DNA of 32,640 bases from Stellaceae bacterium (GCA_035277405.1 DATEKP010000081.1:1-32640); one strand, 5' to 3'; shown: positions 7,980 to 24,600, counted from the stretch's first letter. Notes: a model not told the origin generated them from the sequence alone. Translations and numbers: made by a program.

Positions 7980-7980
7980 T

Positions 7981-8802: not shown

Positions 8803-8924
8803 CGATCACATTCCGCCCCAGGGACCCCGTCCCACCCACCTCACCGCCTGGAAAGCGGCACATCTCGGGCCCGTTCGCTGCGCCTTTGCCCGGACGACAA
8901 GAGGCAGTAGCGGCAGCGTGCAGC

Positions 8925-9875
8925 TCAAATGGCCGGCGGCGCCTGTATCGGACGCAGGATCCGCTCGTCGTAGCCGTATTTCGCAATGTAAGCGGTGCTC
9001 AATCCCAGGCATTCGGTAGAGGCGCAGCGGTCGCGGTATACGCATTGATAGAAGCCGTTGCGCATGAACTCGGGCCAGAAGGCCGGATCGACAAAAAGCT
9101 GCGGCTGCGCGTTCGAAAGAGCGGCCGCGTCCTCGCCCAACAGGCATTCCGGAAAGTTCTTGATCTCGACGCCGCGACCCAACCGCCGCGCCCGGGCGAC
9201 GGCCTCGCGCAGGTAAGGCAGGACAGCCGCGTGCGGAGCGATCAAATCCTTCTCGTCACTCTCGCTCATCGGCCAATACACCCAGAATTCCATCTGGACC
9301 AGATTGCGCAGGTGCCCGAGGCGTTCGACGATTTGCGGCAGCAGCGAGTAGTTGCGACTTGTTACGACCGAGTTGGTCAGCGTGGCGACGCCCTCGAACC
9401 GGTCGAGGATCTCAAGCCCGCGCAGCGTCTTGTCGAACGACCCGACGACGGTGGTGATCGCGTCGTGCGTCTGAGCGTCCGGACCCGCGACGCTGACAAA
9501 ATATTCATCGATGCCGGCCGCGACCAATACTTCGCTGAACCCGCGTTGCGCCAAGTGCATGCCGTGCGTTTGAATCCGCACATGCTCGAAGCAAGCGGCG
9601 CGCGCCTGTTTCGCCAGTTCGGCAAGGTCGCGGCGCAAGGTGATTTCCGATCCGGTCAGGATCAGGCCCTTCCATCGCCGGGTGCGTGCATTTTCGGCGA
9701 GGAGCGCGGCAAACCGCCCGTCCGATTCCGGCTGCAGCCGGTCCATCGTGCCTTCGATCATGCAATGGACGCAGCGCAGATTGCAGCGGAACTCCATGGT
9801 CATCGAGACATAGTCGCGATGATCGAAGTTGTGCAGCGCTGCCGGGCGCGGCGCTGCTTCAGCTCTGACGGACAT
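8925..9875 (-). CDS. Radical SAM enzyme with extra C-terminal cysteine cluster
   Basis: 316 aa. Canonical CxxxCxxC motif: FRCNLRCVHCM (C31, C35, C38; 9762..9785). A GSE-type SAM-binding stretch follows: LILTGSEITL. C-terminal cysteines C243, C278, C284 and C289 (QCVYRDRCASTEC, 9009..9044) may bind an auxiliary cluster. Confidence 0.9.
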   Translation of the reverse strand: MSVRAEAAPRPAALHNFDHRDYVSMTMEFRCNLRCVHCMIEGTMDRLQPESDGRFAALLAENARTRRWKGLILTGSEITLRRDLAELAKQARAACFEHVRIQTHGMHLAQRGFSEVLVAAGIDEYFVSVAGPDAQTHDAITTVVGSFDKTLRGLEILDRFEGVATLTNSVVTSRNYSLLPQIVERLGHLRNLVQMEFWVYWPMSESDEKDLIAPHAAVLPYLREAVARARRLGRGVEIKNFPECLLGEDAAALSNAQPQLFVDPAFWPEFMRNGFYQCVYRDRCASTECLGLSTAYIAKYGYDERILRPIQAPPAI

Positions 9876-9928
9876 GGTCGGGTACCGCCGTCGCCGGTGG
9901 GGCTTCCGCGTGGCGCGTTCGGTTCCGA

Positions 9929-10801
9929 TCAGAGGAGGCCATAAAAGGCGCTCTTCGTTACCCTTACCATGCCGGCTTCCACGACATAGTCGATCCCGAC
10001 ATCATACAGCAAATGGTCGAGATCATCGCGATGATCGCGCACAAACGCGACGAGATCGGAGGGAAACCGCTCCTGCTCCACAAACCCGATCAGCCCGGCC
10101 ACCGGAATGCGCGAGAAATAGACGCCGTCGCCGAACCTCTTGTTCGCAACAACGATGACGGCACAATCCAGCAGCTCGGGCCGCAGCACCGCATTGAGCG
10201 GATAACCGCCGAGATCGTGGTGAACCGAGCAACCGACCTTGGCGGCAACGTCGTCCATCTCGCGTCTCGCGTCGAAGAAGTAATATAGATTGGCAAGTCG
10301 CAAGCCAGACGCCGATTGCTCATAGCAGATGCCAGAGGAGACGCTGCTGCCGGGATTGCCTATATAAATGTTTATGGTATCGAGCGGACGCTCGCCGGCG
10401 ACGATCTCTTCGTCCAGATCGATCGAAAACATGAAATAGGGCCGCCCCTCCAGAGGCGGCAGGGCGCAGCGGACCAGCGGCGCCAGGATCGCGCGAACCC
10501 GCGTGATCGAGACCGCACGCTGCAGCCGCGCATAATCGTAAAAGTAGAATTCGAAGCGGAGCCGGCCGCCGAAATTCTTCACCCCGAAAACGGTCTGCCC
10601 GGGTCCTAACGCGTCGCGCAGCGCTCGGCACGCGGCGGCCAGACGCGGCATGCCGCCGGCGGCCTCCATCGACTGCCACAGCAAGTTGGCGCCGCGCAGC
10701 TTGCCGGCAGCGGGCGACAGGGGCCGGTAATCCCACAGGCAATAGTCGGCGTAGCGGTCGTGCGGCGCCGTCCGCTCGAGTGGCGGGGCAGCCCCAGTCA
10801 T
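9929..10801 (-). CDS. Hypothetical protein (290 aa), no recognised family
   Basis: An internal ATG at 10801 lies 10 nt after the upstream stop; the track start at 10963 would overlap the upstream gene. The product is MTGAAPPLERTAPHDRYADYCLWDY... It has repeated aromatic beta-strand-like motifs (RLRFEFYFYDY, YFMFSIDL, INIYIGN, LYYFFDA, VYFSRI) and ends SAFYGLL. Confidence 0.7.
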   Translation of the reverse strand: MTGAAPPLERTAPHDRYADYCLWDYRPLSPAAGKLRGANLLWQSMEAAGGMPRLAAACRALRDALGPGQTVFGVKNFGGRLRFEFYFYDYARLQRAVSITRVRAILAPLVRCALPPLEGRPYFMFSIDLDEEIVAGERPLDTINIYIGNPGSSVSSGICYEQSASGLRLANLYYFFDARREMDDVAAKVGCSVHHDLGGYPLNAVLRPELLDCAVIVVANKRFGDGVYFSRIPVAGLIGFVEQERFPSDLVAFVRDHRDDLDHLLYDVGIDYVVEAGMVRVTKSAFYGLL

Positions 10802-10811
10802 CGGGTTGGAC

Positions 10812-11609
10812 TCAATGAGCTTCGACTCCGTAGTAGAAGGTGACGAACTCCGCGCCGTCGCGCCCGATCCCGGCGGAGAGATGGCCGAGCGCGACGCTTC
10901 CGGCGCCGCCGAAGACCGGCGTTCCCTGCGACGGCGGCACCGCGAAATCGTCGAGCGCCGCATCGATCACATCACACACCTGGGCGAGGCACAGCCCGGC
11001 GTCATAGACGTTGAGATCACAGGATTGCCGCGGGTTTCCCGGCTCTTCAACCAGCATCATCAGCAGGCGCCCAGCCTCGGCCAAAGCGGCGACCCGGTCG
11101 AGCAGGCCGAGCGCGCAGCGCAGCGCCCGCGGCGCCTCCGCCGCCGGCAGAAGGACGCGCAGCCTCGCCTCGACAGCGTGACGAGTGCGGCAGTGAACCC
11201 AGCTGTATCGTGTCACGGAGCCCCCGCCGGGCCCTCTTACCGGCCACTTATACGCAAGGTGGACGAGCACGGAGCCGCCGTTCGCGGTCGCAATCGCGCG
11301 CCGCGCCGCGCCGGCATATTCGAAATAAATCTTCCGCAGCTCGAAACCCGGCCCGGCCTCGTGTCCGAAATGAACGAACTCGGCGTCATCGAATGCCCGC
11401 GGCAACTCATCCGCGAACTCGGCCGGGATTTCCAGCTCGCGGCCGATCCGGATCAGCCGGTCGAGCGGCGCCGGGCCCAGACCTGCCCGGTGGATGCTGA
11501 GCAGGCAGCGATCCGCCAGCACTGCGCCCGGCACGATCTTCACGGATTTTTCCATGCCGTAGGGTGCGCCCAGTTGCGCCACAAGCCTGACCAAATCCTC
11601 GGCCGGCAT
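10812..11609 (-). CDS. Hypothetical protein (265 aa), possible distant paralogue of the 9929..10801 product
   Basis: The ATG overlaps the halogenase stop (TGATG at 11611..11607). It contains FVHFGHEAGPGFELRKIYFEYAG, comparable to VFGVKNFGGRLRFEFYFYDYA in the neighbouring protein, and ends FVTFYYGVEAH. No known motif is recognised. Confidence 0.7.
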   Translation of the reverse strand: MPAEDLVRLVAQLGAPYGMEKSVKIVPGAVLADRCLLSIHRAGLGPAPLDRLIRIGRELEIPAEFADELPRAFDDAEFVHFGHEAGPGFELRKIYFEYAGAARRAIATANGGSVLVHLAYKWPVRGPGGGSVTRYSWVHCRTRHAVEARLRVLLPAAEAPRALRCALGLLDRVAALAEAGRLLMMLVEEPGNPRQSCDLNVYDAGLCLAQVCDVIDAALDDFAVPPSQGTPVFGGAGSVALGHLSAGIGRDGAEFVTFYYGVEAH

Positions 11610-13132
11610 CAGAGAGCCACCCGATGCAGTTGAGCGAGATGTGCCTTGTGGTCCGCCATCCGGGCGGCAACATCGCGATTTTCCGCCCTGATTCGGTCGA
11701 GCAGCTGCCAGACCTCGGCGGGGCGCGCGATCTCGGCCTCGACGATCAGCCGTCGCGGCAGCCGCTCGTTTCCGGCAAGAATGTAGAAATAGCTGGGCTC
11801 CGGAAACAGTTCCCGCACCGGGGTTTCAATGCGTCCGGTTTGGTCGTAGAGCGCCATCCTTTCGGCAAGGCTTTCGGGCAGGCTGACGCTGCGTGCATCG
11901 CGCCAAAACTCCTCGTCGCGCTGGGCCAGGACATAGTGCAATATGATGAAATCGCGCACCTGATCGTAGACTGCGCTCATCTGGTCGTTGTAGGCACGGC
12001 GCAGCGCCTCGTCAAAATCCCGATCCGGCCAATACTTGATCAGCAGTTCGACCGCTTTCTGGATCAGGTGAATGCCGGTCGATTCCAACGGTTCGACAAA
12101 ACCGGAAGAGAGCCCGACCGAGATGCAGTTGCGCACCCAGAACTCGGCGCGCCGACCGATGCGTATTTTCAGAAGCCGCGGATCAGCAGAGCGCTCTTTC
12201 ATTCCGGATTGCCGGATCAGCGCGGCGACCGCGGCCTCGGCCGAGATGTGAGCGCTCGAAAATACGTACCCGGTGCCGGTCCGGCTGTTCAACGGTATGC
12301 GCCATGTCCAGCCCGCGGGCATCGCCGTGGCGAGCGTATAGGGCGGAAACCGGTCGCCGCGCGGCAACGGCAACGCAACCGCGCGGTCGCACAGCATCAA
12401 ATGCGACCAGTCGATCCATTTTGCGCCGAGAGCCTGCTCGATCAGTCGTCCGGTAAACCCGGTTGCATCGATAAACAGGTCCCCGCCGAGCGTGCGATCG
12501 CCGCCGATGTCCAAGCCGGTAATATTGCCACGCTCGTCGAGCGTCACCTCTTTGACTTCGCCGAACAGGTGCTGAACGCCCTCGCCGGTCGAGATCTCGC
12601 GCAAATAGGCGGCGAAGGCGCTCGCATCGAGGTGATATGCATAGCTGCCCGTCTGCTCGATGATCGAGGTGCCGCGAGCCGGCTTCGGCGATTTCTCCAA
12701 TTCGCAGAGCCGCGCCTGCAGCGAATATTCCGAATAGGCAAGGCGACTGGCCGCCTCGACCCGCCGCTTCCGCCAGTAATGGAACAGGTCAAGCCCATTG
12801 ATCTGGGCGCCGCATAGCCCGAAGGCGTGCCAGTACGTGAAGTCTTGCCGCAACCAGCCGTCGAACCGGATAGCCAGCTTGTAGGTGGCCGAGCATCGGC
12901 GCATGAACTCCTGTTCGTCCAGGTTCAGCGCACGCACGAACTGCACCAGGCTCGGGATTGTCGCCTCGCCGACCCCGATTGTGCCAAGCGTCGGGGATTC
13001 TACCAGCACCACCTGGCACCCCAGCCGTCGCATGAAGCGGTTGAGATAAACCGCGGTAATCCATCCCGCCGTGCCGCCGCCGACAATGACGACGCGGTGA
13101 AGCCGCTGCGGCTGATCTGCGGCAGGCAGCAT
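11609..13132 (-). CDS. Flavin-dependent tryptophan halogenase family protein
   Basis: 507 aa. Motifs: VIVGGGTAGW (GxGxxG, 13064..13081), GVGEATIP, the lysine context ATYKLAIRF (K85), GWTWRIP (WxWxIP, 12293..12310) and GFVEPLESTG. A strong AGGAG lies 6 nt upstream of the ATG and overlaps the stop of the preceding gene. Confidence 0.92.
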   Translation of the reverse strand: MLPAADQPQRLHRVVIVGGGTAGWITAVYLNRFMRRLGCQVVLVESPTLGTIGVGEATIPSLVQFVRALNLDEQEFMRRCSATYKLAIRFDGWLRQDFTYWHAFGLCGAQINGLDLFHYWRKRRVEAASRLAYSEYSLQARLCELEKSPKPARGTSIIEQTGSYAYHLDASAFAAYLREISTGEGVQHLFGEVKEVTLDERGNITGLDIGGDRTLGGDLFIDATGFTGRLIEQALGAKWIDWSHLMLCDRAVALPLPRGDRFPPYTLATAMPAGWTWRIPLNSRTGTGYVFSSAHISAEAAVAALIRQSGMKERSADPRLLKIRIGRRAEFWVRNCISVGLSSGFVEPLESTGIHLIQKAVELLIKYWPDRDFDEALRRAYNDQMSAVYDQVRDFIILHYVLAQRDEEFWRDARSVSLPESLAERMALYDQTGRIETPVRELFPEPSYFYILAGNERLPRRLIVEAEIARPAEVWQLLDRIRAENRDVAARMADHKAHLAQLHRVAL

Positions 13133-13141
13133 GCGTTCTCC

Positions 13142-14209
13142 TCAAGCCGGCCGGTGCGCGGTTATCAGATGAAATTCCATGTCCAACTCGATTGCGCAAT
13201 GGTCGATGGCTTCGAAGCCGACCTCGGCGAGAGTCGTCAGATAAAGCTCCGCCGGCCTCAGGAAATGGACGAAGGCGAGCGCCGGGAAAAGCGCGTACGG
13301 CAGCCGCCGGCCGGCAAGATTGATCGGCGCGCGTTCGAAGATGACGAGCTTTCCGCCGGGCCGGACGGCGAGGTGCGCGCGCTCAATCAGCTGACGCGCG
13401 TCCGCGTCCGGCCAGTCATGCAGAACCGACTTGAACGACACCAGGTCGGCCGGAGACGGCAGCGGGCCGGTTCGCATATCGCCGGGGAAGAAGCCGATCC
13501 GCCCCGCCAGGCGTGGGCCGGCAGACCGTGCGATATGCTGCCGCCCAAGTTCGCAGACCACAGGCAGATCCAGTACGGTTGCCTGCAGCGAAGGGTTTCG
13601 CCGGCAGGCCTGAAGCGCGAACTCACCGGTGTTGCCGCCGAAATCGATCAGGCGCTCGACGTCGTCGATGCCGATCATATCGAGTGCCGGGGCAGCCTCA
13701 TACTTCGTCAGGCAGGTGGTAAATTGCGTCCAGGCGCGCGTCGCCTCCAGGTTTTCCGCGGTAATCTCGAAGCATCTGTCATAGCGGAACAGCTCGAATA
13801 CCTTCGAGCGCGCCATGAAACGCGGAAGGTCGGTCAGCAACGGCGTGAACAGCTCGTGGATATCGGGCCAAACCAGATCAGCGAAGGCAATCCTGCATTC
13901 CAACAGATCGCGGAAGCGAAGCCCCGCCTCGAATTCCGTGGTCAGCGCCACGACGTCGCCGGCACGTACAAGCACCGCATTCGACGCGAGCAAGTCTGAC
14001 AGAAGCCCGAGCCCCGCTGGACTGACGCGAAGCTCACGGCCCAAAACCGCCAGCGGGGTTGCCCCATTGCGCTGCAAAAAATCCACAAGGCCGAGTTCGA
14101 GGCCGCTCTTCAAAGCGCGCGCGTCGATTTCGCTGCCGAGGAAGGCGTTCACCTGCAGGAAGTCGAGATTGGCCGGCTGCACCAGCTGCCGCGCGCACCC
14201 CGGCAGCAT
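13142..14209 (-). CDS. O-methyltransferase family 2 (COMT-like, with N-terminal dimerisation/winged-helix region)
   Basis: 355 aa. SAM motif: LIDFGGNTGEFA. Also ATVLDLP, FFPGDM, and SVLHDWPD in the catalytic His region. The ATG overlaps the upstream stop by 1 nt (TAATG at 14211..14207). Confidence 0.88.
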   Translation of the reverse strand: MLPGCARQLVQPANLDFLQVNAFLGSEIDARALKSGLELGLVDFLQRNGATPLAVLGRELRVSPAGLGLLSDLLASNAVLVRAGDVVALTTEFEAGLRFRDLLECRIAFADLVWPDIHELFTPLLTDLPRFMARSKVFELFRYDRCFEITAENLEATRAWTQFTTCLTKYEAAPALDMIGIDDVERLIDFGGNTGEFALQACRRNPSLQATVLDLPVVCELGRQHIARSAGPRLAGRIGFFPGDMRTGPLPSPADLVSFKSVLHDWPDADARQLIERAHLAVRPGGKLVIFERAPINLAGRRLPYALFPALAFVHFLRPAELYLTTLAEVGFEAIDHCAIELDMEFHLITAHRPA

Positions 14210-15171
14210 TACGGAATCCGATCTTTCGGGCTCTCGGCGTCGTCGGCCGAACGCTCGGGCAGGTCGAAGGCGACCCGGCAGCGCAGGCCCGCCGGCACCT
14301 CATTGTCGGGGTTCGGCAGTTCGAGCCTGACGCCGAACGTGCCGCTCGCCGCATCGAAGACCTGGTCAACAACGGTCACCTTCGCCTTGCGGTCGCCACC
14401 GAACGGATCGTTCGGATGAACCGCCGCGATTTCGCCGATCTTGATGAATTTGTAATAGCGAACCGGCAGGTACGTCTCGACATTGAGCGGATTGATCTGT
14501 GCGATCGAGACGATCGTCGCTTCCTGATTGACGAATTCGCCCGGGCCGAGCGAGCGCTTCGTGACGACGCCGTCAATTGGGCTGCGGATTGTCCGCAGCG
14601 CCAGTTCGGCCTCAGACCGCGTCAGCTCGATCTGTGCCATGCGATGATTCAGCATTCCGAGCGCGAGTTCCTGTGTCGCCACATTGTATTCTGCCTTGGC
14701 GTTATCGACGTCCTGAACACTCGCCACGTGTTGCTGCTGCAACTCGAGCTTGCGCTTCAGGACAGCCTCCTTCTGGGTCAGCACCGCCTGCTTGGCCTGG
14801 ATTTCGGCGGTACTGTCGCCGCGCGCTTTGTTGGCGGCGACGACCGCCTGTTCGACGTCGGATTGCAGATGCGCGACGATCTGGCCCTTCTTGACGGTAT
14901 CACCGCGATCGACATTGACGCTGTCGAGTATGCTCGACACCGAGCTGCCGAGCTTCAGGCTGAGTGACGGCTCCGTCACGCAATCGAAGCTGGTCGCAGC
15001 GGCATTGGCGCCGCGCGCAAGGCCGGCGGCGCACACAAGCAGCAAGCCGCCGCGAAAGAGCACACGACCGCCGAGCATCGCGGCCTTACCAAAGACGTTC
15101 ATTCGCGATCCAACAAAAGGGATGGCAGAGCCGCCGCGGCGACCCGGCGGGGCTGGGCGGTGGCGTGTCAT
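14209..15171 (-). CDS. HlyD / RND-adaptor type periplasmic membrane fusion protein (MFP)
   Basis: It has an N-terminal anchor or signal (MNVFGKAAMLGGRVLFRGGLLLVCAAGLARG), a lipoyl-like motif (VDRGDTVKKGQIVAHL), a coiled-coil stretch, then RSPIDGVVTKRSLGPGEFV. Start 15171 forms an ATGA overlap with the SecA-like stop. ATG 15102 is an alternative start. Confidence 0.85.
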   Translation of the reverse strand: MTRHRPAPPGRRGGSAIPFVGSRMNVFGKAAMLGGRVLFRGGLLLVCAAGLARGANAAATSFDCVTEPSLSLKLGSSVSSILDSVNVDRGDTVKKGQIVAHLQSDVEQAVVAANKARGDSTAEIQAKQAVLTQKEAVLKRKLELQQQHVASVQDVDNAKAEYNVATQELALGMLNHRMAQIELTRSEAELALRTIRSPIDGVVTKRSLGPGEFVNQEATIVSIAQINPLNVETYLPVRYYKFIKIGEIAAVHPNDPFGGDRKAKVTVVDQVFDAASGTFGVRLELPNPDNEVPAGLRCRVAFDLPERSADDAESPKDRIP

Positions 15172-17177
15172 TCGGGCATTCCGGAAAAGGCCAGGGTCTT
15201 CGTTTGCCATTGATCGGAACGCAGCAGATCCGCCCGCATGCGGGCATGCAGCCGTTCCGCTCGCCGTTGCGCGTAATGCGAGGCTCCGCTGCCGACCCAG
15301 GCACCCAGCACGCGGGCCGCGACTTTTGCGATGCCAGAGAGGGCGATGCCGGTTTCGGTATCCATCAGCGGGTCCTCCAGCGACAGGATCGCCTCGAAAG
15401 ACCCCGGCTGTCCCTGGCGGCCTGCGCGCCCGGCGAGTTGCAGGTCAATCCGCCGCGCGTCATGGCGCTCGGTCATGATGACGTGCAGTCCGCCAAGCTC
15501 TTCGATCCCCTCGCCGAGATGGATGTCGGTGCCGCGGCCAGCCATGTTGGTTGCGACCGTGATGCGCCCCCGCTTGCCGGCCTCGGCGACGATCTCGGCC
15601 TCGCGCTTGTCCTGCGTCGCGTTGAGCACGGTGTGGGGCAGCCCGGCGGCATTCAGCGCCAAACTGGCGCGTTCGGAACTGGTGACCGAGCGTGTCCCGA
15701 TCAGGATCGGTACTCCGAGCTTATGCAGTACGGCGACGCGTGCCACGATGGCTCGCCACTTCTCCTCCTCGGTCGCGAGGACCACCTCGGGGCGGTGAAG
15801 CCGGCGCACAGGCTTCGCGGTCGGAATGGCAACGACCGGACGCCGGTAGACCCGCCAGAGTTCAGCGGCGACCGGCAGCAGCGTTCCACTCATTCCGGCG
15901 AGCCGTTGGTATCGCCGGAAGAAGCGCTGGTAAGTAATGCGCGCGATCGTGGTACGCCGAACGGACAGCTCGCAGTTTTCCTTGTGCTCGATCATCTGAT
16001 GCAGCCCGTCGCTCCACGAGCGGTCCGGCATGATGCGCCCGGTATATTCGTCGACGATGCACACCTTGCCGTCGGCAACCACGTAGTGCTCGCCGCGGTT
16101 GAAGAGATGAAGGGCCGCGAGGGCCTGGCGCGCGAGCTCCTCACGGCTCACGATACTGTGCCAATGGCCGCCGAGGCCTTCGGCGAAGGCGGTGATGCGA
16201 TCCTGCCCGGCGACGGTCAGGTGAACACGGCGCTCCTCGTTCGACGCGATGAAATCGGTGTTCGCGTCGAGCGAGCCGGCCAGCCGCAGCGCCGCGGCCA
16301 CGGTGTCGGCATCGAGCACATTGTCGGCCGCGCCGGAAATGATCAGCGGCGTTCTCGCCTCATCGACGAGCACGCTGTCGGCCTCGTCGACGAGGGCGAA
16401 GTGCAGACCCCGCAGGCGCAACTGCCGTGCCCGCGGCGTCGAGCTGTGCAGCGCCTCGACCTTCAGCGGCAGGTCGCCGGCCGCCTGGCCGAGGACCATG
16501 CGGTCCCGCAGATAGTCGAAGGCGAGCTCTTTGTTCGTGCAGTAGGTGATGTCGCAAGCATAGGCCGCCTGACGCTCGGCGGTGGTCTGGCCGCCGACGA
16601 CGATCCCGACGCTGAGGCCGAGGCTGGCGTAGAGCGGCCCCATCCATTCGGCATCGCGGCGCGCCAGGTAATCGTTGACGGTGACGACGTGGATCGGGAT
16701 GCCGGCCAACCCGGCCGTGCCGGCAACTAAGGTCGCGGTCAGCGTCTTGCCCTCGCCGGTCGCCATCTCGGCGAGCATGCCCCGCACCATGGCAAACGCA
16801 CCGACGAGCTGAACGTCGAAATGGCGCTGACCCAGGATTCGGCCCGACAGTTCACGAATCAACGCGAAGGCGCGGGCGGCCTCAGCATCGGGAAAGCCGT
16901 GCCGGCGCCGCAACGCGGCCGCAGTGTCGCGGATCGCCGCCGGAAACGCTTCGCCCGGCAACACCCGAAGCTCCGCCGCGTGGGCCTCGACGAGCGGCAG
17001 AATGCGCGTGAGGCGATGCATGCGCCAGCGCGCTGTCCGAGCTATCAGCTGCGCCTGGCCGGCGATCAGCGCGCCTTCCAGCGCGCTCTCCCGCCGTTCG
17101 GGCGCGTCGGCGTAGATGCGTTGGCGCGGCAATGCGACAGGATCGGCCGCGGTGCCCCAGGCAATGGCGCTAGACAC
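15168..17177 (-). CDS. Truncated SecA-like ATPase (NBD1, preprotein cross-linking domain and NBD2 only; no helical scaffold/wing or C-terminal tail)
   Basis: Motifs: HFDVQLVGAFAMVRGMLAEMATGEGKT (Walker A, 16743..16766), VVTVNDYLARRDAEWMGPLY, VDEADSVLVDEARTPLIISG (16332..16391), TNMAGRGTDI, and GGLHVIMTERHDARRIDLQLAGRAGRQGQPGS. Only about 60 aa follow the last motif. The start is uncertain: GTG 17177 overlaps the upstream stop by 8 nt, and TTG 17132 and ATG 17021 are alternatives. Confidence 0.85.
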   Translation of the reverse strand: MSSAIAWGTAADPVALPRQRIYADAPERRESALEGALIAGQAQLIARTARWRMHRLTRILPLVEAHAAELRVLPGEAFPAAIRDTAAALRRRHGFPDAEAARAFALIRELSGRILGQRHFDVQLVGAFAMVRGMLAEMATGEGKTLTATLVAGTAGLAGIPIHVVTVNDYLARRDAEWMGPLYASLGLSVGIVVGGQTTAERQAAYACDITYCTNKELAFDYLRDRMVLGQAAGDLPLKVEALHSSTPRARQLRLRGLHFALVDEADSVLVDEARTPLIISGAADNVLDADTVAAALRLAGSLDANTDFIASNEERRVHLTVAGQDRITAFAEGLGGHWHSIVSREELARQALAALHLFNRGEHYVVADGKVCIVDEYTGRIMPDRSWSDGLHQMIEHKENCELSVRRTTIARITYQRFFRRYQRLAGMSGTLLPVAAELWRVYRRPVVAIPTAKPVRRLHRPEVVLATEEEKWRAIVARVAVLHKLGVPILIGTRSVTSSERASLALNAAGLPHTVLNATQDKREAEIVAEAGKRGRITVATNMAGRGTDIHLGEGIEELGGLHVIMTERHDARRIDLQLAGRAGRQGQPGSFEAILSLEDPLMDTETGIALSGIAKVAARVLGAWVGSGASHYAQRRAERLHARMRADLLRSDQWQTKTLAFSGMPE

Positions 17178-19326
17178 GAAATTGCCCGAGGAAGAACTGC
17201 CGGATGGACCGCACGATGCGCCACGCGATCGGCTCGTCGGCGTGCTTGAAAAACACGTAAGCCCGCGAGCCCAGCATCGCGGAGCCGGTCGGTTCCAGCA
17301 ACTCGATGTCGAGCTGGAAAAATCGGAACAATGCCTGCGGATGCTGCATCTGCGACGGGTCCAGCGCGATCGAGCCGCCGCCACGCGTCGTCAGGGCGAG
17401 ACTCGGGACATCCTGCTGCGCCGCCGGCACCTCGCGCAGGATCTTGGCCGGGATCGGATGGTCGAGATCCTCGGCAAGATGGGCTTCGACGACGGTCGAG
17501 GGCTGCCGGATCAGGTCGACGTCGGTCTGCGGCGCCAACACCCGGACGACCGGATGACCATCACGCAGCACATAGCCGAGCAGCTCGCCTCGCTTGACGA
17601 AGCGCCCCAGCAGGCTGGCCGCCTCCTCGCCCGACGCCAGAATGAACCGCCCGCGCCGCGCGGCGTCGATGTCGAGGTCTTGCTCCTGCCTGCGGGCGGC
17701 GCTCAGCTGCTCCTTCAGGTGCTTCTGCTGGTCGAGGAACATCTCGGTCTGGACGCGATCGATCTGCCTGACCGCATCGAGGCGCTGCATTACTTCCTCA
17801 AGCTCGGCCTTGATCACGGTCACCTTGGCGTTGAGGATCGGGTCCGCCAGAACGAGCAGCGGTTCGTTCGCTTCGACTTCGCTCCCCGGCAGCGCCGCCA
17901 CCTTGGTCACGAACCCATCGGTCTTGGCGCGCAATTCGGCCTGATCGGGGACGATGACGACGCCCTCGGCGAAGGTCGAATAAGGGATGGGGATGCCGAA
18001 CAGCACCACGACGGCCGCCGCGACGGCGCCCCCGACGACCGCGAAGGCGCGCCGCCGGTGGCCCCGCAGCCGTTGGCTGGTGGCGAGAAATCTCAGCCCC
18101 TTGAACAGCGGCCAGATCGCGATCGCGATGACCGCCCACAGCGCCATGACGAGGCCTATGGCGAAAATCCGCGTCGCGAGGAACAGCGCAATCCCAAGCG
18201 ATACGGTCATCCGGTAGGCGAACGACAGAACCGCATAACCGAGCAGCCATTTCGCCTCGCTCGGCACGATCACCGGCGTCTCGACGTCGTCGACCCTGAA
18301 GAGATGCCGCTGTATCAGGTAGAAGATGTAAGCATTGGCGCGCGTCCCGAGATTGGGAACCTCGATCAGGTCGGAGAAGATGTAATACCCGTCGAAGCGC
18401 AAGAGCGGATTGCCGTTGAACAGCAGCGTCGAGACGCCGCCGATCAGCATGACGTTAAAGGCGAGCGTGCGGCCGAGGCCTGGGCTGCCCTGCACCCACA
18501 GGATCATCGCGATTGCAGCGAGCGTCATCTCCACCATGATGCCGGCCGCCCCGACGATGATCCGGCGTCGCTTCTGCCCGAACGCAGCGGACGCCGAGGC
18601 ATCGACGTAGAGGACCGGGATGAAGACGAGCAGCATGACGCCGACCTCATGCACCTCGCCGCCCCAGATTTTGGTCGCGTAGGCGTGGCCGAGCTCGTGC
18701 AGGCTTTTGACGAATGGATAGACGCAGATGATGACGGCGACGTTTTCGGCCGTCAGCACCCTGTCAGACACGTCCGAGGTCAGCTCCGGCGCGTGCAGCG
18801 CCGCCAGCACCAGGCCGACCAGCACGATTGCGAGCCACCCGACGAAGCCTGCCGCCGTGAATACCGGCCGCATAAACGGCATGGTCAGATCGAGCAGCCG
18901 GTTGGGATCGAACAGCGGGATGCGCACGGCCATCGGGTTGCGCAGCTGCTGCATCATGCGGCGCTGGCTCGCCTGGTCCGACCGCTTCACCATTTCGTCG
19001 AAATCGGGCGGGGTCTCGCCCCACAGCAAATCCGCGCTGTGCAGCTGGGCGAGAAGCTGGATCGTCTCGTCCTGTGTCGGCGGATCGTCGCTGGCCCGTC
19101 GCCCGGCGGCCTCCCAGATCGCACGCACGGTGCGACGGCCGTCCATCAAGCAGACCATCAGGTTGGCGATCGGCGACAGCGAGTGGAACCGCCCGGTCTG
19201 ACGGTCCTGCAGGATGTACCAGGCGCGGCGGCGAAACACCTGGCGGTGCAATGTCGTATGCGGCCGCAGCCGCGGCTTCAGATCGGCAACTCTGTACCAG
19301 GAGCTGCTGAACAGAGAGCGGCTCAC
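17170..19326 (-). CDS. Fusion protein: PqqD-like (RRE-like) N-terminal domain + site-2-protease/M50 membrane metalloprotease core + HlyD-like C-terminal domain
   Basis: 718 aa with a GTG start. Residues ~25-100 (AWYILQDRQTGRFHSLSPIANLMVCLMDGRRTVRAIWE...ETIQLLAQLHSADLL) resemble PqqD. HELGH is at 18685..18699 and NPLLRFDG (S2P NxxPxxxxDG motif) at 18388..18411, within about 6 or more hydrophobic segments. The C-terminal third (LRAKTDGFVTKVAALPGSEVEANEPLLVL, a coiled coil, then YVFF) resembles an MFP. Confidence 0.88.
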   Translation of the reverse strand: MSRSLFSSSWYRVADLKPRLRPHTTLHRQVFRRRAWYILQDRQTGRFHSLSPIANLMVCLMDGRRTVRAIWEAAGRRASDDPPTQDETIQLLAQLHSADLLWGETPPDFDEMVKRSDQASQRRMMQQLRNPMAVRIPLFDPNRLLDLTMPFMRPVFTAAGFVGWLAIVLVGLVLAALHAPELTSDVSDRVLTAENVAVIICVYPFVKSLHELGHAYATKIWGGEVHEVGVMLLVFIPVLYVDASASAAFGQKRRRIIVGAAGIMVEMTLAAIAMILWVQGSPGLGRTLAFNVMLIGGVSTLLFNGNPLLRFDGYYIFSDLIEVPNLGTRANAYIFYLIQRHLFRVDDVETPVIVPSEAKWLLGYAVLSFAYRMTVSLGIALFLATRIFAIGLVMALWAVIAIAIWPLFKGLRFLATSQRLRGHRRRAFAVVGGAVAAAVVVLFGIPIPYSTFAEGVVIVPDQAELRAKTDGFVTKVAALPGSEVEANEPLLVLADPILNAKVTVIKAELEEVMQRLDAVRQIDRVQTEMFLDQQKHLKEQLSAARRQEQDLDIDAARRGRFILASGEEAASLLGRFVKRGELLGYVLRDGHPVVRVLAPQTDVDLIRQPSTVVEAHLAEDLDHPIPAKILREVPAAQQDVPSLALTTRGGGSIALDPSQMQHPQALFRFFQLDIELLEPTGSAMLGSRAYVFFKHADEPIAWRIVRSIRQFFLGQFRV

Positions 19327-19333
19327 TGTGGCC

Positions 19334-21268
19334 TCACATCCAGCGCCAGAACCATAGCTGCAGCCAATCGATCACCGGATGTACCCAAATCCACGCGAGA
19401 TTGCGGCGGCCGACGCGGATTTTGCCGATACCCTCCATGCCGGGCCTGAGCTGCGGCGGGTTTTGCGTGAGCCGTCCTTCGACGCGAAACACATTGCGCC
19501 CGGCATGCGCCTCGGCGATCGGCGTGACCTTGTCGATCAGGAACGGCAATCCCGTGTTGGGCAACGCGGTGACGATCAGATCGCCGGTCTGGCCGGGCGC
19601 CACGGCGCGAACCTCGCGCTCGTCCACGTCGAGGATCACCCGATAGGCGGCAAGCGGCGCGATTTCGAACAGCACCTGGCCGCGCTGCACCGACGTGCCG
19701 ACCAGCTGGCTCAGGTCGCCCGACACCACCAGCCCCGCTATCGGCGAGCGCAGCTGAATGCGGGCGAGCTGCGCATCGATCAACTTGATGTGCGCGACCG
19801 CCTGATCGATCTGGGCGCGAATAACATTGATCGCCGCCGGCTCGCGCGCCGCCAGCGCCTTGTCGTATTCATACTGATGCTGCTGTCGTTCGGTCACCCA
19901 TTTGAGCCGCTCGAGCAGCAGGTCGCGGTCTTCCAGCGAGGCGACGAGTTCTCCTTCCGCGACCTTGTCGCCGGGGCGCACGTCGGCGTCCTTGATGAAC
20001 CCGTCATACGGCGCCACGATCGCGCGCCGCACGAGGCCTTCGATCTGGGCATCGGCATTGACGTTGTAGGTGCCCTGGGCCAGCGACAGGAACAGCGCCG
20101 CGGCGGCAATCGCGATGACCACGAGCTTGCGCACCAGGTGGCCGGGGCCGACCAGCCGCACAATTTGCCGACGCAAGCTCTCACCGGTCTTGACGATCAG
20201 CCAACGGTCGTTGCGGCGCTTTTCTTCAAGCACCGGGCCGACGATCGCGACCGCCAGCTCGAGCAATTCGACCGTGTCCTGCTCGAACGGCTCGTCGGCC
20301 GGACGCTCGAACGTCAGCGCGCCGACGAAGCTGTCGACGACCAGCATCGGGACGGTGAGGACCTGCCCATTGTGGTGCAGGCGCGACAATTCCGCATGCG
20401 CGGTGGTCGCGATCAGCTGGTCGGCCGGCGCCGGATAGAGAATGAGACAGCGCTGATCGAGCGCCTCGTCCATCGCCTTGGCGAGCCCGCTCACCAAAAC
20501 CATGCGCTCACCAAACTGCGCGGTATGGGAGATGACCTTGACGGCGACGGCGCTGCCGATGCGGATTCCGAGACTGACGCGGGTGCATTTGCAGCGGACC
20601 GCCAGCGCGGTGACAGCGGCCAGCGCCGCCGCTTCGAAACCATCGCGCGCGAGCGCATCCGCCAGGAGGTCGAGCGCCGCCCGCGAGCGCTCGATCAGCC
20701 GTTCCTGCTCGATGCCGCGAGCCTGCCGCAGCCGCTCGCGAATCCATGCGACACCCCATTGCAGCTGGCGCAGCGCGGACTTGATGTCGTCGGGCCGGGC
20801 GCCGTGCAACGTCACGCCCGCCACCCCCTTCAGCTCGCCGTCAAGCTGGATCGGCAGGGCGACATGAGCCGCCGCAGCCTCTCCGGTGCGTCCGGCGGCA
20901 TCGGTGTCGGCGACGCCCCGCCGCTCGCGCAAAGCCAGTTCGGCGGCCTCGATCAGCGGCGCCGAGCGGGTCGAGCCTTCCGGCCAGAATGCCACCGCCT
21001 GGAAACTGTTGGGGGCGGCGGCGGCGAGCAGAACGACGCCACGCGCCGCCCCCGCAATGATCTGACATTGCAATGCGAGCCAAGCGCCCGCCATTTCGAA
21101 CAGCGTTTGCGAGTCGCCGAGGCGGCGCCACAAGGCGGGCTCGAGCGACGCGACCGGCGCACCGACGTCATCCGCCTCATCGGCCGCCGACGGCGCGCCG
21201 GCCGGTTCGCTCGCCGCGGCCGCCATCGATCCGGCCCGCAAGGAAGATTGCTGGGGGGGCGGAGTCAT
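19334..21268 (-). CDS. GAF-GAF-TM-HlyD membrane fusion protein
   Basis: ATG 21268 lies 5 nt after the DUF3467 gene's stop; track start 21343 would overlap that gene. There are two GAF-like regions (…GVVLLAAAAPNSFQAVAFWPEG…ALPIQLDGELKGVAGVTL and …VSLGIRIGSAVAVKVISHTAQ…VPMLVVDSFVGALTFER). These are followed by a TM segment (LVVIAIAAAALFLSLA) and an MFP core (IVAPYDGFIKDADVRPGDKVAEGELVASL, a coiled coil, then LRSPIAGLVVS). Confidence 0.8.
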   Translation of the reverse strand: MTPPPQQSSLRAGSMAAAASEPAGAPSAADEADDVGAPVASLEPALWRRLGDSQTLFEMAGAWLALQCQIIAGAARGVVLLAAAAPNSFQAVAFWPEGSTRSAPLIEAAELALRERRGVADTDAAGRTGEAAAAHVALPIQLDGELKGVAGVTLHGARPDDIKSALRQLQWGVAWIRERLRQARGIEQERLIERSRAALDLLADALARDGFEAAALAAVTALAVRCKCTRVSLGIRIGSAVAVKVISHTAQFGERMVLVSGLAKAMDEALDQRCLILYPAPADQLIATTAHAELSRLHHNGQVLTVPMLVVDSFVGALTFERPADEPFEQDTVELLELAVAIVGPVLEEKRRNDRWLIVKTGESLRRQIVRLVGPGHLVRKLVVIAIAAAALFLSLAQGTYNVNADAQIEGLVRRAIVAPYDGFIKDADVRPGDKVAEGELVASLEDRDLLLERLKWVTERQQHQYEYDKALAAREPAAINVIRAQIDQAVAHIKLIDAQLARIQLRSPIAGLVVSGDLSQLVGTSVQRGQVLFEIAPLAAYRVILDVDEREVRAVAPGQTGDLIVTALPNTGLPFLIDKVTPIAEAHAGRNVFRVEGRLTQNPPQLRPGMEGIGKIRVGRRNLAWIWVHPVIDWLQLWFWRWM

Positions 21269-21273
21269 TCGGC

Positions 21274-21591
21274 CTATCGCTCGATGTCGAGCGCCCCGTG
21301 CCTCGCCTCGTATTCGCGCAGCACGCCGCCGAGCACGGTCCACAACCGCTTTGCCGCAAACGGCGTCAGGACGATCCGGTTGGTCAGATCGACCACGACT
21401 TGACCCGCATCAGCGACATTCCAGGTCCGGTTCATCCCGAAGAACAGATCGACCTGCTCTCGTGTGCTCTGCACGTTGACGACATTGGCGAAATGCGTCG
21501 CCATCTCGTTGTCGTTCCACTGCACCGACGGAGCCGCAGGGGCGTCGGCGGCGGGCGGTTGCGTCCCCGAACCGGCGGAGGTCTTTGCCAT
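21274..21591 (-). CDS. DUF3467-like small protein (105 aa)
   Basis: ATG 21591 is preceded by AGGA about 13 nt upstream. The N-terminus MAKTSAGSGTQPPAADAPAAPS is disordered. The core WNDNEMATHFANVVNVQSTREQVDLFFG...VVDLTNRIVLTPFAAKRLWTVL matches my recollection of the DUF3467 signature (Y/F-aN-v-v-hs-eEf-lDFG). Confidence 0.72.
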   Translation of the reverse strand: MAKTSAGSGTQPPAADAPAAPSVQWNDNEMATHFANVVNVQSTREQVDLFFGMNRTWNVADAGQVVVDLTNRIVLTPFAAKRLWTVLGGVLREYEARHGALDIER

Positions 21592-21627
21592 CTTGTCGCG
21601 TTCCTCTGTAAAGGTTCGCCGTCGCAT

Positions 21628-21683: not shown

Positions 21684-24600
21684 TCAGGTTTCGAACCACG
21701 CTCTGGCGGCGACGCGGCCGAAATCGCGCAGTGCGGTCAGCCACGACGACGACGGCACCACCATCGCTTCATCCGCCGAAGCATAGGCCGACTGCCCGGG
21801 CTGCGACGGATTCGCATCGGCCGCCGCGCGAGCGTCGGCGACGACGATCGTCAGCGGCTCGGGCTGCGGGGCCACAAAAGTCCCGGCCGCCTCGTCGAAG
21901 ACCCAGGTCTGGCGCTGCCCGCCGGACCCCGGCGCGGGCTGGTGGCGGGCGACCGCGAAACTGATCTCGCTGTCGCGAACCGCCCGGATGACATCGTCCG
22001 GCGAGGCGAACGCAAACTGGCGCGCTGCCTGCGACGCCTCGGCCTTGTCGCCGAACAGGATCTCAGTTCCGCCGTCGGCAGTGATCGGGGCGGCCCCGAT
22101 GTCGCCGGGCAGCACCAACCGAACCGCCTGATCGGCCGTGTCCGGCGTCAAGAACTGCGCCTCGCCCGCCGCCGCCAGCAGGCGCTGCATGGTCCCTGTG
22201 CCGAACGGACCAAACGGTGCATCCGCGTCCGGCGCAGTCTGCCCGATGGTGTCCGCTTGGCGCGGCGGCAAGCCGGCGAGGGCCGGCGGGGGCAGCGTGA
22301 TCGATGCCGCGCCGGGCACCGAGAGCTCGTCGAGCAGCGGGAAGACGGATTGCGGCGGCGGTTGAACCGACGATCGGTCTGCCGGTCGGTCAGCCACCGG
22401 CGCGGTCGCAACCGGCAACAGCAGCGGCGCGCTCTCGTCCTGCAAGGCCGGCGCCGGCGTGCTCATGGCCGGCACCGGCTGCAGGGTTGCCGGGGTATCC
22501 TCGCTTGCCAGCGGCGCCAGGACCGTCTGGACCGGCGGCGCCAGCCGTGTTCCGGTGCTGAGGTATTCCGACATCAGGCCGCTGGTCGTATCGGCGAAGC
22601 CGAGCACGTGCGCGAGCTCGTGCATCTCGACGGTCAGCAGATCCATTGCGCCGGCGGCAGCGCTGCCCGGCAGGGCGACAAGCCCGTCTGACGCAGTCAG
22701 CAGGAAGGCGTCGTCCGTCGTGGGGTTCGGGTCGATAAACCAGCCCCAGCCCGCCGCGTTGGGCGACAACGTGATCGTGTCGCCGACCGTGATGCCGAGC
22801 CCGTCGTCCGGCAACGCCGCGATGTCGATCGTCACCGCCCGCAATTCGGCGATCGTCGCGGCATCGAGCGAGTAGACCGCCGTCAGCCGGTCGATCGCGG
22901 CGCCGAGCTCGGCGTCGACCTCGCTCATGGTCAGCGACGTGACCCCGACGGCCGCCGCGGTTGGCGCCGAGGCCGCGTACATGTGCTGGATCGTCTCGGT
23001 CTTCAGGTTCGAATCGTCGGTGAAGACCGTGCTCTGCGTGAAGGTCGCTTTGCCGGTCAGCACCGCGAGGCCGAACTGCCCGCCGGTCAGCACCGAGTTG
23101 TAGGTGTAGCTGAGCAGCTGCAGCCCGTTGACCTTGAGGACGACGAAATTGCCGTTGGCGTTGATCTCGATCGCATAGCTCGTGCCGCTGGCGATCGTGA
23201 AGGACGCCTTGGCGTCGAATACGAAGCCGCTCTTGCTCGTGTAGTGGCCGAGCGCAACCTGGTTGGTGCCGCGCAGCAGCACCGCGAATTTGTAGTAGCC
23301 GGGATTGTCGTAAGCATAAACGAGGCCAGCCTCGCCGGTCGTCTGCAACGTCGCCTTGAGATCGAGCGTCGCGTTCGGCTGCAGGCTCAGCGTGCCGGCC
23401 GGCAGCCCGAACGCCGGGCCGATGTCGATCAGCTGGATGGCCGCACCGCCCGACGGCGCGCCCTTTGCGGTCGAGGCCGTTCCGGTATCGCTGCCGGGCG
23501 CCATCGTCCAGCTGCCCGAGCTCGGCGGCGCGTAATACTGCGCGGTGCCGCCGGTGTACGTCTCGGTATAGGTGAAGCTGGTCGGCGGCACCGGCTGCTG
23601 GATCACCAGGTTGCTGAAGCTCGACAGTGAGTTGTTGGCGCCGAGCCCGACGATGCCGTAGTTGACGCCGATATTGACGCCGTTCACGACGTTCCACGGA
23701 AACAGGAAGCTGACCGCCATGCTCGCGTTGTTGTTGACGATCAGGTAGGCGTAGTTGTTGTTCAGCGACAGGAACAAATTGTACCTCGTGCCGGCGACGA
23801 TTTGAGCCGGCGCCTGCGCGTCGATGACCCACGGCACCGCCTGCGTCGGATCGTAATGGCCGATCTCGACCTTGTTGATCGACTCGTCGATGCCGGCGAA
23901 CTTGAAATTGCTCGGGCTCTGGTAGTCGAAAATGATGTAGGCGTTCGACTTGTAGCCGGCGGTCGGCTTGCCGGTCGCCACCGACGCGGTCAGTTCGAAA
24001 TAGTTGGGCAATGTGTTATTCGGATCGAACACCGCGAAGGAATTGGTAAAGAGGGCGGGCGGGGTCGCGTTGAGCAGGCCGTTCTTGACCGTCCAGGTGC
24101 CGCTGACCGGCTCGACCGCTCCCAGCGTGTTGTTGGTGAAGCTGGCGGAGGCGATGACCGTGCGCGAGCCGCCCGGGATGTGGCCCTGCGCCACCGCCTG
24201 GTTCGGCGCGCCGCCCTGCATCTGCCAGAACGGATCGACCTGCGTCACGAGGCCGAGCTCGCCATAGGGCTCGCCGTTGCGCGCCGGGTCGGCGATGCTG
24301 ATGTCGTTGCTGACATTGTCGGCACCGTCGGCGGCCGACAGCTGGTAGAGGTAGGCGAACAGCGCCGGGTTGACGTCGCGGCTGACCGTCGGCAGGCCGT
24401 AGGGCGCAAACGGGATGACGTATTGGTTGAACTCGCCGCGCCAGGCGATCAGCCGGTCGTTGGCGCCGCCGGCGATCAGCGTGTTGCGCCCGGCGCCGGC
24501 GAAGATGACGCTGTGCATGTAGGCGTTGTTGTCGGTGACGTCGTTCAGCCCCGGCTGCGATCCACCTGTCAGGTTGCGCTGACCGTTCAGCAGATCGTCG

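Follow-up and report, generated by a model that had tools for sequence, protein, structure and literature searches.

A gene cassette with a truncated SecA-like ATPase, a PqqD-like/M50/HlyD fusion and two further HlyD-type adaptors: a candidate ABC-less exporter of giant LEPR-XLL proteins

A stretch of 32,640 nucleotides from a Stellaceae bacterium (GCA_035277405.1 DATEKP010000081.1:1-32640; G+C content about 66%), here called the window, carries a cassette of five genes on its minus strand. They encode a small DUF3467 protein, a membrane fusion protein (MFP) with a GAF domain (GAF-MFP), a fusion of a PqqD-like domain, an M50 peptidase-like core and an MFP module, a SecA-like ATPase, and a third membrane fusion protein (MFP3). 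The same gene order recurs in genomes and metagenomes of several bacterial classes. In many of these loci a very large open reading frame (ORF) adjoins the cassette, with a LEPR-XLL leader wherever its N-terminus could be found. We consider the chances about even that the cassette is an envelope exporter resembling type I secretion systems (T1SS), which works without an ATP-binding cassette (ABC) transporter and moves giant repetitive proteins carrying this N-terminal leader.

The five proteins of the cassette

The five genes, like all other relevant genes among the ORFs of the window, lie on the minus strand. Likely gene starts were refined from the junction sequences, which read, in cassette order, as gaps of 5 nt and 7 nt, an overlap of 8 nt, an ATGA overlap between the stop of the SecA-like gene and the start of MFP3, and a TAATG overlap leading from MFP3 into a block of tailoring genes. 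Gaps and overlaps of this kind indicate that the five genes are tightly (translationally) coupled. A preliminary description of the window, made by a model from the sequence alone, had already proposed five tightly coupled genes at these positions, and the ORFs, domains and junctions agree with it. Its domain assignments were likewise recovered in Pfam and NCBIfam profile searches, with PqqD, M50 and the HlyD_3 match of the fusion falling just below threshold.

The SecA-like ATPase (669 residues, GTG start; 15168-17177, minus strand) consists of nucleotide-binding domain (NBD) 1, a preprotein cross-linking domain (PPXD), NBD2 and about 60 residues of the first scaffold helix. It is matched by SecA_DEAD (E = 3e-95), SecA_PP_bind (1.2e-24) and P-loop_SecA (8e-52); SecA_SW gave no match, and the NCBIfam SecA and SecA2 models all scored below their own cut-offs. 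Alignment to B. subtilis SecA, for which structures have been solved, runs over residues 59-547 with about 45% identity and then stops. Since it ends within the first scaffold helix, the protein is left without the wing domain, the two-helix finger and the C-terminal tail. The Walker A (16743-16757), Walker B (16374-16388) and GRGTD (15525-15539) motifs, all on the minus strand, are intact, as are RAGRQG, motif VI and the arginine finger. In the window protein 118 residues follow GRGTD, and in 58 of 58 homologues this number lies between 112 and 123; with so uniform an end point, the truncation is fixed in the family and is no accident of the window gene. Of 66 homologues, 62 contain GEGKT, 64 DExDS and 58 GRGTD.

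The fusion protein (718 residues; 17170-19326) is composed of a PqqD-like domain of the recognition element (RRE) type known from ribosomally synthesized and post-translationally modified peptides (RiPPs; about 19024-19218), a polytopic M50 core (about 18097-18879) and a periplasmic MFP-like module (about 17176-17979), all on the minus strand, and has about eight hydrophobic segments. RRE domains bind RiPP leaders. In Pfam, PqqD (PF05402) is tentatively assigned at the N-terminus with 22.7 bits against a cut-off of 23.4, Peptidase_M50 (PF02163) misses its gathering cut-off of 27.2 with 19.8 bits, and HlyD_3 is slightly sub-threshold with 21.1 bits. Many close homologues carry precomputed PF05402 matches and the NCBI name 'PqqD family peptide modification chaperone', and some have precomputed PF02163 matches; the core is a divergent relative. 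The NCBIfam model daptide_HExxH (NF041824) covers residues 18-404 (E = 8.7e-43; 146.9 bits against an equivalog cut-off of 300), and that for YydH/LiaK (NF058609) also matches (E = 8.4e-12; 45.3 bits against a cut-off of 225).

The core contains the motif pair of site-2 proteases (S2Ps), HExxH and NxxPxxxxDG. The zinc-binding HExxH motif is HELGH (residues 210-214; 18685-18699, minus strand) and is invariant among 12 divergent loci; the second motif, of the 'NPDG' type and providing an aspartate as third zinc ligand, is NGNPLLRFDG (residues 304-313; 18388-18417, minus strand). All 94 full-length fusion homologues retain both HExxH and NxNPxxxxD[GA], with Asn304, Asn306, Pro307 and Asp312 as invariant alignment columns. 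Together with the counts for the ATPase motifs, this shows purifying selection on both sites. No PDZ domain, as is typical of RseP-type S2Ps, was seen in the Pfam scan of the fusion. The fusion family is large, with more than 7315 proteins at E < 1e-10.

GAF-MFP (644 residues; 19334-21268, minus strand) matches HlyD_3 and HlyD_D23 (E about 1e-15), and its GAF domain scores slightly above the Pfam cut-off (23.3 bits against 22.4). About 375 cytoplasmic residues, including the GAF domain, are predicted to precede one transmembrane segment (residues 378-396; 20081-20137, minus strand) and a periplasmic HlyD-type adaptor. MFP3 (320 residues; 14209-15171, minus strand) has an N-terminal signal or anchor and is otherwise an ordinary membrane fusion protein, matching RND_mfp (129 bits, cut-off 94.9), HlyD_D23 and Biotin_lipoyl_2. 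The HlyD-type membrane fusion proteins of type I secretion have their counterpart in three window proteins with HlyD_3 or HlyD_D23 matches.

The DUF3467 protein (105 residues; 21274-21591, minus strand) is matched by PF11950 with an E-value of 1.1e-15, and in 34 of 62 informative loci its gene immediately precedes that of GAF-MFP. Conservation is uniform along residues 22-105, with variation confined to the N-terminal 20 or so residues; the protein is therefore not a leader-plus-core precursor, and a role as RiPP precursor, for which a leader and a variable core would be the pattern, was rejected. An AlphaFold2 model from a shallow alignment was unusable (pLDDT 48), and the one used was built on a diverse alignment from a representative search (pLDDT 86). 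It has a disordered N-terminus and beta-strands packed on a long C-terminal helix. Foldseek comparison of this model with the Protein Data Bank (PDB) gave no significant match; the best rows (lowest E-value 0.26) were PC4/Sub1, PUR and MRP-type folds, which consist of four strands and a helix. A SecB-like chaperone was considered and rejected: SecB lay outside the Foldseek top 50, a PDB profile search gave no signal, and hhalign against an E. coli SecB sequence returned a probability of 0.2-0.3%. Judged from the position of its gene, the DUF3467 protein is probably a small soluble cytoplasmic accessory, a chaperone or an adaptor.

Gene order across loci and the giant neighbours

A genome scan with the fusion protein as query yielded 21 loci, from Bradyrhizobium/Xanthobacteraceae-type metagenome-assembled genomes (MAGs), Methylosinus, Methylocystis, Methylocapsa, Gammaproteobacteria, Rhodocyclaceae, Desulforhopalus and Nitrospirae. 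When metagenomes were scanned with a profile built from divergent members, 529 relatives were confirmed and 80 loci retained. Comparative counts refer to 103 loci (L001 onwards), in which short contigs depress the raw detection numbers. In the 21 genome loci, which come from Alpha-, Beta- and Gammaproteobacteria and Desulfobacterota, tblastn and ORF clustering recovered the order (DUF3467)-GAF-MFP-M50 fusion-SecA-like-MFP3; it recurs in the 80 metagenome loci, and identities range from 34 to 78%. Of the cassette, the Nitrospirae locus (L019) has no more than part of an M50 fusion, at the edge of the contig. Recurrence on this scale lies far beyond chance. The SecA-like gene was detected in 87 of the 103 loci, GAF-MFP in 82 and MFP3 in 70. 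The truncated SecA-like gene lies within 1.5 kb after the M50-HlyD fusion gene in 66 of 69 informative loci. The neighbourhood survey proposed in the preliminary description comes out in favour of a conserved five-gene combination.

Among the scanned ORFs of the window, no OEP/TolC, ABC, RND or MFS gene was found, as had been described before, nor any ABC-ATPase-like ORF, and no SecY-like gene, SecY2 or Asp partner. In the 103 loci there is no T1SS-type ABC transporter; ORFs with both Walker A and LSGGQ occur in two, each encoding a stand-alone NBD of about 265 residues. Of 41 informative loci, 10 have a TolC-like OEP gene with the cassette. In the methanotroph loci and L021 it comes directly after MFP3, and in L045, L048, L064, L066 and L067 it lies within the cassette or next to it. 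The absence of ABC transporters across 103 loci, together with TolC in cis in some of them, suggests that the ABC-less state is a property of the family and that a TolC-type exit belongs to it. An envelope-spanning apparatus without an ABC transporter, as envisaged in the preliminary description, fits these comparative data, with all of its functions inferred.

In the window, the neighbour upstream of the DUF3467 gene encodes a giant RTX-repeat protein (21684 to the window edge at 32640, minus strand; at least 3651 residues visible). The listed start of this ORF is an ATG at 32531, yet the frame is open to 32640, so the true N-terminus lies outside the window; as a correction to the preliminary description, the giant RTX protein is not complete there. 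A fragment of a homologue (P0392) reaches at least 400 residues further in the N-terminal direction. HemolysinCabind matches in five stretches (E = 1.2e-32), and a DUF3383 match lies near the visible N-terminal part. The RTX repeats occupy approximately residues 1100-2350 of the visible part and are followed by about 1300 non-RTX residues up to the C-terminus. Within this non-repeat C-terminal part, a possible zincin HExxH motif, HELAHVLGF (residue 3340 of the visible protein; 22596-22622, minus strand), has no Pfam match, and low-complexity sequence rich in Pro and Ala comes after it.

ORFs of at least 1500 residues, mostly open at the locus edge, lie immediately upstream of the DUF3467 or GAF-MFP gene in many loci, as in the window (L004-7, L011, L021, L033, L036, L037, L039, L040, L053, L063, L067, L075, L076, L094, L096 and L100), and in other loci a large gene comes right after MFP3. 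Flanks of at least 9 kb are available for 33 loci, and 23 of these have a giant ORF of this size or a LEPR N-terminus. A further three break off at a SapC-family gene, and in L022 SapC directly precedes a giant of 10,068 residues (Mesorhizobium neociceri). Across loci, the giants share RTX-type repeats only. A common C-terminal secretion signal was looked for and none was found, the C-termini from different loci being without similarity.

In 17 loci the N-terminus of a large ORF next to the cassette could be located, and in every one it carries the LEPR motif. In this leader, a basic stretch leads into x-(F/L/M)-(E/D)-(E/P)-LEPR(L/V/I)L(L/F/Y)SAD. As a regular expression applied to the six-frame ORF set, it gave 15 matches, against 1 in the reversed and a mean of 1.3 (maximum 4) in shuffled sequences, and 14 of the 15 stand at the start of a large ORF. 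All 13 N-termini that were scored against NF012209 ('LEPR-XLL domain-containing protein', model LEPR-8K) exceed its curated cut-off. Membership of these proteobacterial leaders in PF07595 was rejected, as 1 of 10 matched, with an E-value of 0.17.

These N-termini provide a concrete candidate for the leader-bearing substrate that, according to the preliminary description, the RRE would capture. As for the cargo, which it had sought in either the RTX giant or the tailoring block, giants neighbour the cassette across classes while the tailoring block is confined to one alphaproteobacterial clade. This distribution favours the giant, and the RTX protein of the window is the probable cargo.

Known systems, a candidate mechanism and its rivals

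Contrary to the earlier view of the cassette as undescribed, the module has been reported in silico by Kamneva, Poudel and Ward (2015; PLoS One, PMC4452313) for 'secondary SecA_DEAD domain proteins' without wing and scaffold. The locus partners listed there are weak-M50/HlyD, GAF/HlyD and HlyD/biotin-lipoyl proteins, at times with an OEP, in Proteobacteria, Planctomycetes, Verrucomicrobia, Nitrospirae and Chlorobi (one Chlorobi species). The same motor and pore idea was proposed, with the SecA_DEAD ATPase replacing the ABC transporter and the M50 protein as a possible pore, and S2 Table of that paper has entries for the SapC family and, at the DUF3467 position, for a small 'conserved hypothetical'; DUF3467, PqqD, RTX, giant neighbours, LEPR-XLL or any substrate are not mentioned. 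The window has the same order (GAF, M50, SecA, HlyD) as, for example, META1p2402-2399 of Methylobacterium extorquens AM1, again with no ABC transporter, and differs only by its additional coupled tailoring block. In the absence of any architectural difference, the window cassette is a member of this module. No experimental work on the module was found in the searchable literature.

For the leader, Studholme et al. (2004) proposed the planctomycete motif RRLxxExLExRxLLA (PF07595) as an export signal, to which no machinery was assigned. It has in common with LEPR-XLL (NF012209) a basic region and LExRxLL(S/A)A on very large surface or secreted proteins. In 'Chlorochromatium aggregatum' (bioRxiv 10.64898/2026.03.19.712371), the Chlorobium chlorochromatii giants Cag_663 (36,806 residues) and Cag_665 (20,647 residues) have an N-terminal LEPRxLL and are flanked by SapC and TolC genes, with SapC preceding the giants; giants are described there as kept in the periplasm until cell contact. 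A horizontally acquired secA gene, Cag_1676, possibly of the truncated type, is co-expressed with Cag_663 and Cag_665, in line with the export mechanism favoured below. No paper linking LEPR-XLL to the SecA_DEAD/M50/HlyD module was found in the searchable literature, and the link is one that we newly infer here.

The likeness to classical T1SS (HlyB-HlyD-TolC; LapBCE) lies in HlyD-type adaptors with a cytoplasmic N-terminal extension, a TolC-type factor, which some relatives encode in cis, and a giant, repetitive, calcium-binding probable cargo that would be exported unfolded. The cassette differs in its SecA-derived DEAD motor in place of the ABC protein, its S2P-like core and its three adaptor modules instead of one. 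Its candidate signal is N-terminal, whereas that of T1SS is C-terminal, and an N-terminal LEPR-XLL signal implies export from the N- to the C-terminus. Coupling of a protease domain to export, as proposed for the cassette, is a feature of the bacteriocin-type PCAT exporters. The RiPP leader peptidases of the daptide and YydH/LiaK families are homologous to the fusion over about 390 residues, covering the RRE-like domain and the polytopic HExxH core, and a common logic may apply, in which a leader is recognized, cut at the membrane, and the reaction coupled to export. Unlike in these peptidases, the core is fused to an MFP and paired with a SecA-like motor, and its probable substrates are thousands of residues long. 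NBD1, PPXD, NBD2 and the ATPase motifs are shared with SecA and SecA2 of the Sec system, but the cassette protein lacks the two-helix finger that inserts into SecY and is encoded in an MFP operon. Scaffold-less SecA_DEAD and PPXD domains have also been described inside giant proteins of Omnitrophota and Actinobacteria, for which self-export was suggested (West-Roberts et al. 2023, bioRxiv 10.1101/2023.11.21.568195); there the motor is within the giant polypeptide, whereas that of the window is a separate protein of 669 residues in an M50/MFP operon.

In the export mechanism that we favour, the neighbouring giant would be the cargo and its LEPR N-terminus, given the observed association, would act as the leader. 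By homology to the daptide and YydH proteins, the cytoplasmic PqqD-like domain of the fusion may bind this leader. The scaffold-less SecA-like protein, which retains a complete DEAD motor and the PPXD without the SecY-interacting two-helix finger, would then clamp the unfolded chain and, its motifs being intact, feed it N to C by ATP hydrolysis; the GAF region could serve as docking platform for the motor or as regulatory input. Passage through the inner membrane would be via a putative pore of the polytopic M50 core and the transmembrane anchors of the two anchored adaptors, where the invariant HExxH/NPDG site may remove the leader. The three HlyD-type modules, to judge from their homologues, would bridge the periplasm as a duct ending at a channel of the TolC type. 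Some relatives encode this channel in cis, and in the genome of the window it would have to be unlinked. RTX proteins generally fold on calcium ions outside the cell, which prevents back-sliding, and the RTX repeats of the giant may do the same.

Several points weigh against this mechanism. Every step of binding, cleavage and translocation in it is read from gene context and homology. To our knowledge no S2P-family protein acts as a protein-conducting channel, which leaves the inner-membrane conduit unexplained; S2P enzymes mostly cut transmembrane helices, and the LEPR leader is weakly hydrophobic. The Pfam scores for PqqD and M50 are slightly under their gathering thresholds. In L014 and L021 the fusion gene is followed by MFP3 with no SecA-like gene between them, and a LEPR protein or giant still adjoins; the motor may be encoded elsewhere in these organisms or be dispensable (in L021, a TolC-like gene follows MFP3). 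Ten of the 33 long-flank loci have no giant within 10 kb. The window giant resembles the LEPR giants of relatives at the repeats only, with no orthology beyond them, and its own N-terminus lies beyond the window edge and beyond the reach of the homologue fragments and contig L023. RTX-repeat giants are classically substrates of ABC-type T1SS, and an unlinked ABC system is conceivable.

The giant might instead leave the cell elsewhere, for example through an unlinked ABC-type T1SS acting via the RTX region, with the cassette confined to processing or retention. The complex would then remove or hold the LEPR segment or extract stalled chains, loosely as LapG and LapD act on LapA. Such a role would suit the RTX repeats, the giants held in the periplasm of 'Chlorochromatium', the GAF domains and the REC-GGDEF-EAL gene inside one cassette (L017), both suggestive of regulation, and a cassette with no evident protein-conducting channel. 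It agrees poorly with the three distinct MFP modules, which fit a duct and not a protease, with the count of T1SS-type ABC transporters (0 of 103 loci, against 10 with a TolC-like gene of their own), with the position of the window giant's RTX repeats, mid-protein and about 1300 residues from the C-terminus, and with the unlike C-termini of the giants; we regard it as unlikely. Signalling by regulated intramembrane proteolysis, in which a GAF sensor and an S2P cut a membrane regulator as RseP does, the MFP domains play a structural part and the giant gene is a regulated target and not a substrate, would employ the sensor domain and the S2P-type active site, but leaves the SecA-like motor with its PPXD, the three MFPs and the TolC genes in cis unaccounted for. 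With no conserved anti-sigma, sigma or transcription-factor gene in the loci and no PDZ domain detected, it appears highly improbable.

Maturation and export of a small RiPP-type peptide, with the block providing the tailoring enzymes, the RRE-M50 protein cutting the leader and the MFPs and TolC performing the export, is also improbable in our view. The homology of the RRE and M50 parts to leader peptidases is as this explanation would have it, as are the coupling of the block to MFP3 in the window, its interleaving with cassette genes in L013, L018 and L020, and a radical SAM protein weakly resembling peptide maturases. However, the tailoring genes are absent from the methanotroph, gamma-, beta- and deltaproteobacterial loci and from most metagenome loci, and in the loci that do have the block, SapC and a LEPR giant come next. 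A search of the block and the loci for a small conserved precursor ORF found none, and DUF3467 is conserved over its entire fold. Moreover, a small peptide needs no SecA motor that clamps polypeptides.

Beyond export by the cassette as such, we tentatively propose a wider reading, in which it constitutes a distinct Gram-negative pathway, so far without a type number, and the missing exporter of LEPR-XLL giants. A SecA-derived motor would stand in for the ABC protein, an RRE-guided S2P-like core would recognize and remove the N-terminal leader, and three adaptors would lead to TolC in a one-step, N-to-C export of proteins that are among the largest known from bacteria. The tailoring enzymes of the Bradyrhizobium/Mesorhizobium-type clade, to which the window belongs, would modify the giant in a RiPP-like manner. 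How proteins of 3,000 to more than 30,000 residues are moved across two membranes is largely obscure beyond LapA-type ABC systems. The LExRxLL export-signal motif of 2004 and the scaffold-less second SecA of 2015 are unconnected in the searchable literature, and neighbourhood data join them here; this cargo link is what the present analysis adds, with a testable model and tractable hosts in Methylobacterium extorquens, Ruegeria pomeroyi and Bordetella avium. The candidate cassette genes of these hosts are META1p2399-2404 in M. extorquens AM1, SPO2714-2718 in R. pomeroyi DSS-3 and BAV1940-1948 in B. avium 197N. If true, it would mean a new secretion route, a new use of the SecA motor and the S2P fold, and a predictor of secreted giant adhesins and toxins in symbionts (for example, 'Chlorochromatium'), rhizobia, methanotrophs and planctomycetes. 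If wrong, the cassette remains a widely distributed machine in need of explanation, and its fusion protein has more than 7,000 homologues.

The tailoring block and other neighbouring genes

The tailoring block (7158-14209; assigned by Pfam and NCBIfam), which TAATG at 14209 couples to MFP3, lies entirely on the minus strand. It encodes an O-methyltransferase (13142-14209), a Trp-halogenase family protein (11609-13132), two proteins without a Pfam or NCBIfam match (10812-11609, 265 residues; 9929-10963, about 300-344 residues), a radical SAM protein (8925-9875), a WelO5-like Fe/2OG halogenase (7981-8802) and a methyltransferase (7158-7979). The two unmatched proteins are conserved, at 53-76% identity, in L001, L003, L013, L018 and L020. 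The block accompanies the cassette only in the alphaproteobacterial clade of the window (L001, L003, L013, L018, L020 and L022; partly L002 and L024), and in these relatives it is trailed by SapC and the LEPR-XLL giant. This arrangement suggests that the tailoring enzymes may act on the giant itself, and a giant secreted protein that is halogenated, methylated or modified by radical SAM chemistry is a possibility.

SapC-family genes occur with the cassette in 12 of the 103 loci. In L041, L044 and L096 the M50 fusion precedes and the SecA-like gene follows the SapC gene, which in L053 and L075 is instead placed between the giant and GAF-MFP; L022, L001 and L003 also have one. A gene for an OmpA-like beta-barrel outer-membrane protein (434-486 residues) is found directly upstream of DUF3467 in L003, L013, L018, L020 and L022. 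It is conserved in the Bradyrhizobium/Mesorhizobium-type clade, and in the window its place is taken by the giant gene. In L013, L018 and L020, which are loci of long-read MAGs, the cassette genes are split into many frame-shifted pieces, either sequencing errors or pseudogenes.

In the Rhodocyclaceae locus L017, the REC-GGDEF-EAL protein (14315-16222) is inserted between the SecA-like gene and MFP3, and the downstream neighbour is a LEPR-XLL/DUF4347/cadherin adhesin. By analogy with LapA-type adhesins, the inserted gene hints at control by cyclic di-GMP. In the window, long antisense or overlapping ORFs on the plus strand (e.g., 17116-19449 and 19379-21403) shadow the real genes and have no domain matches of their own, as is typical for DNA of this G+C content.

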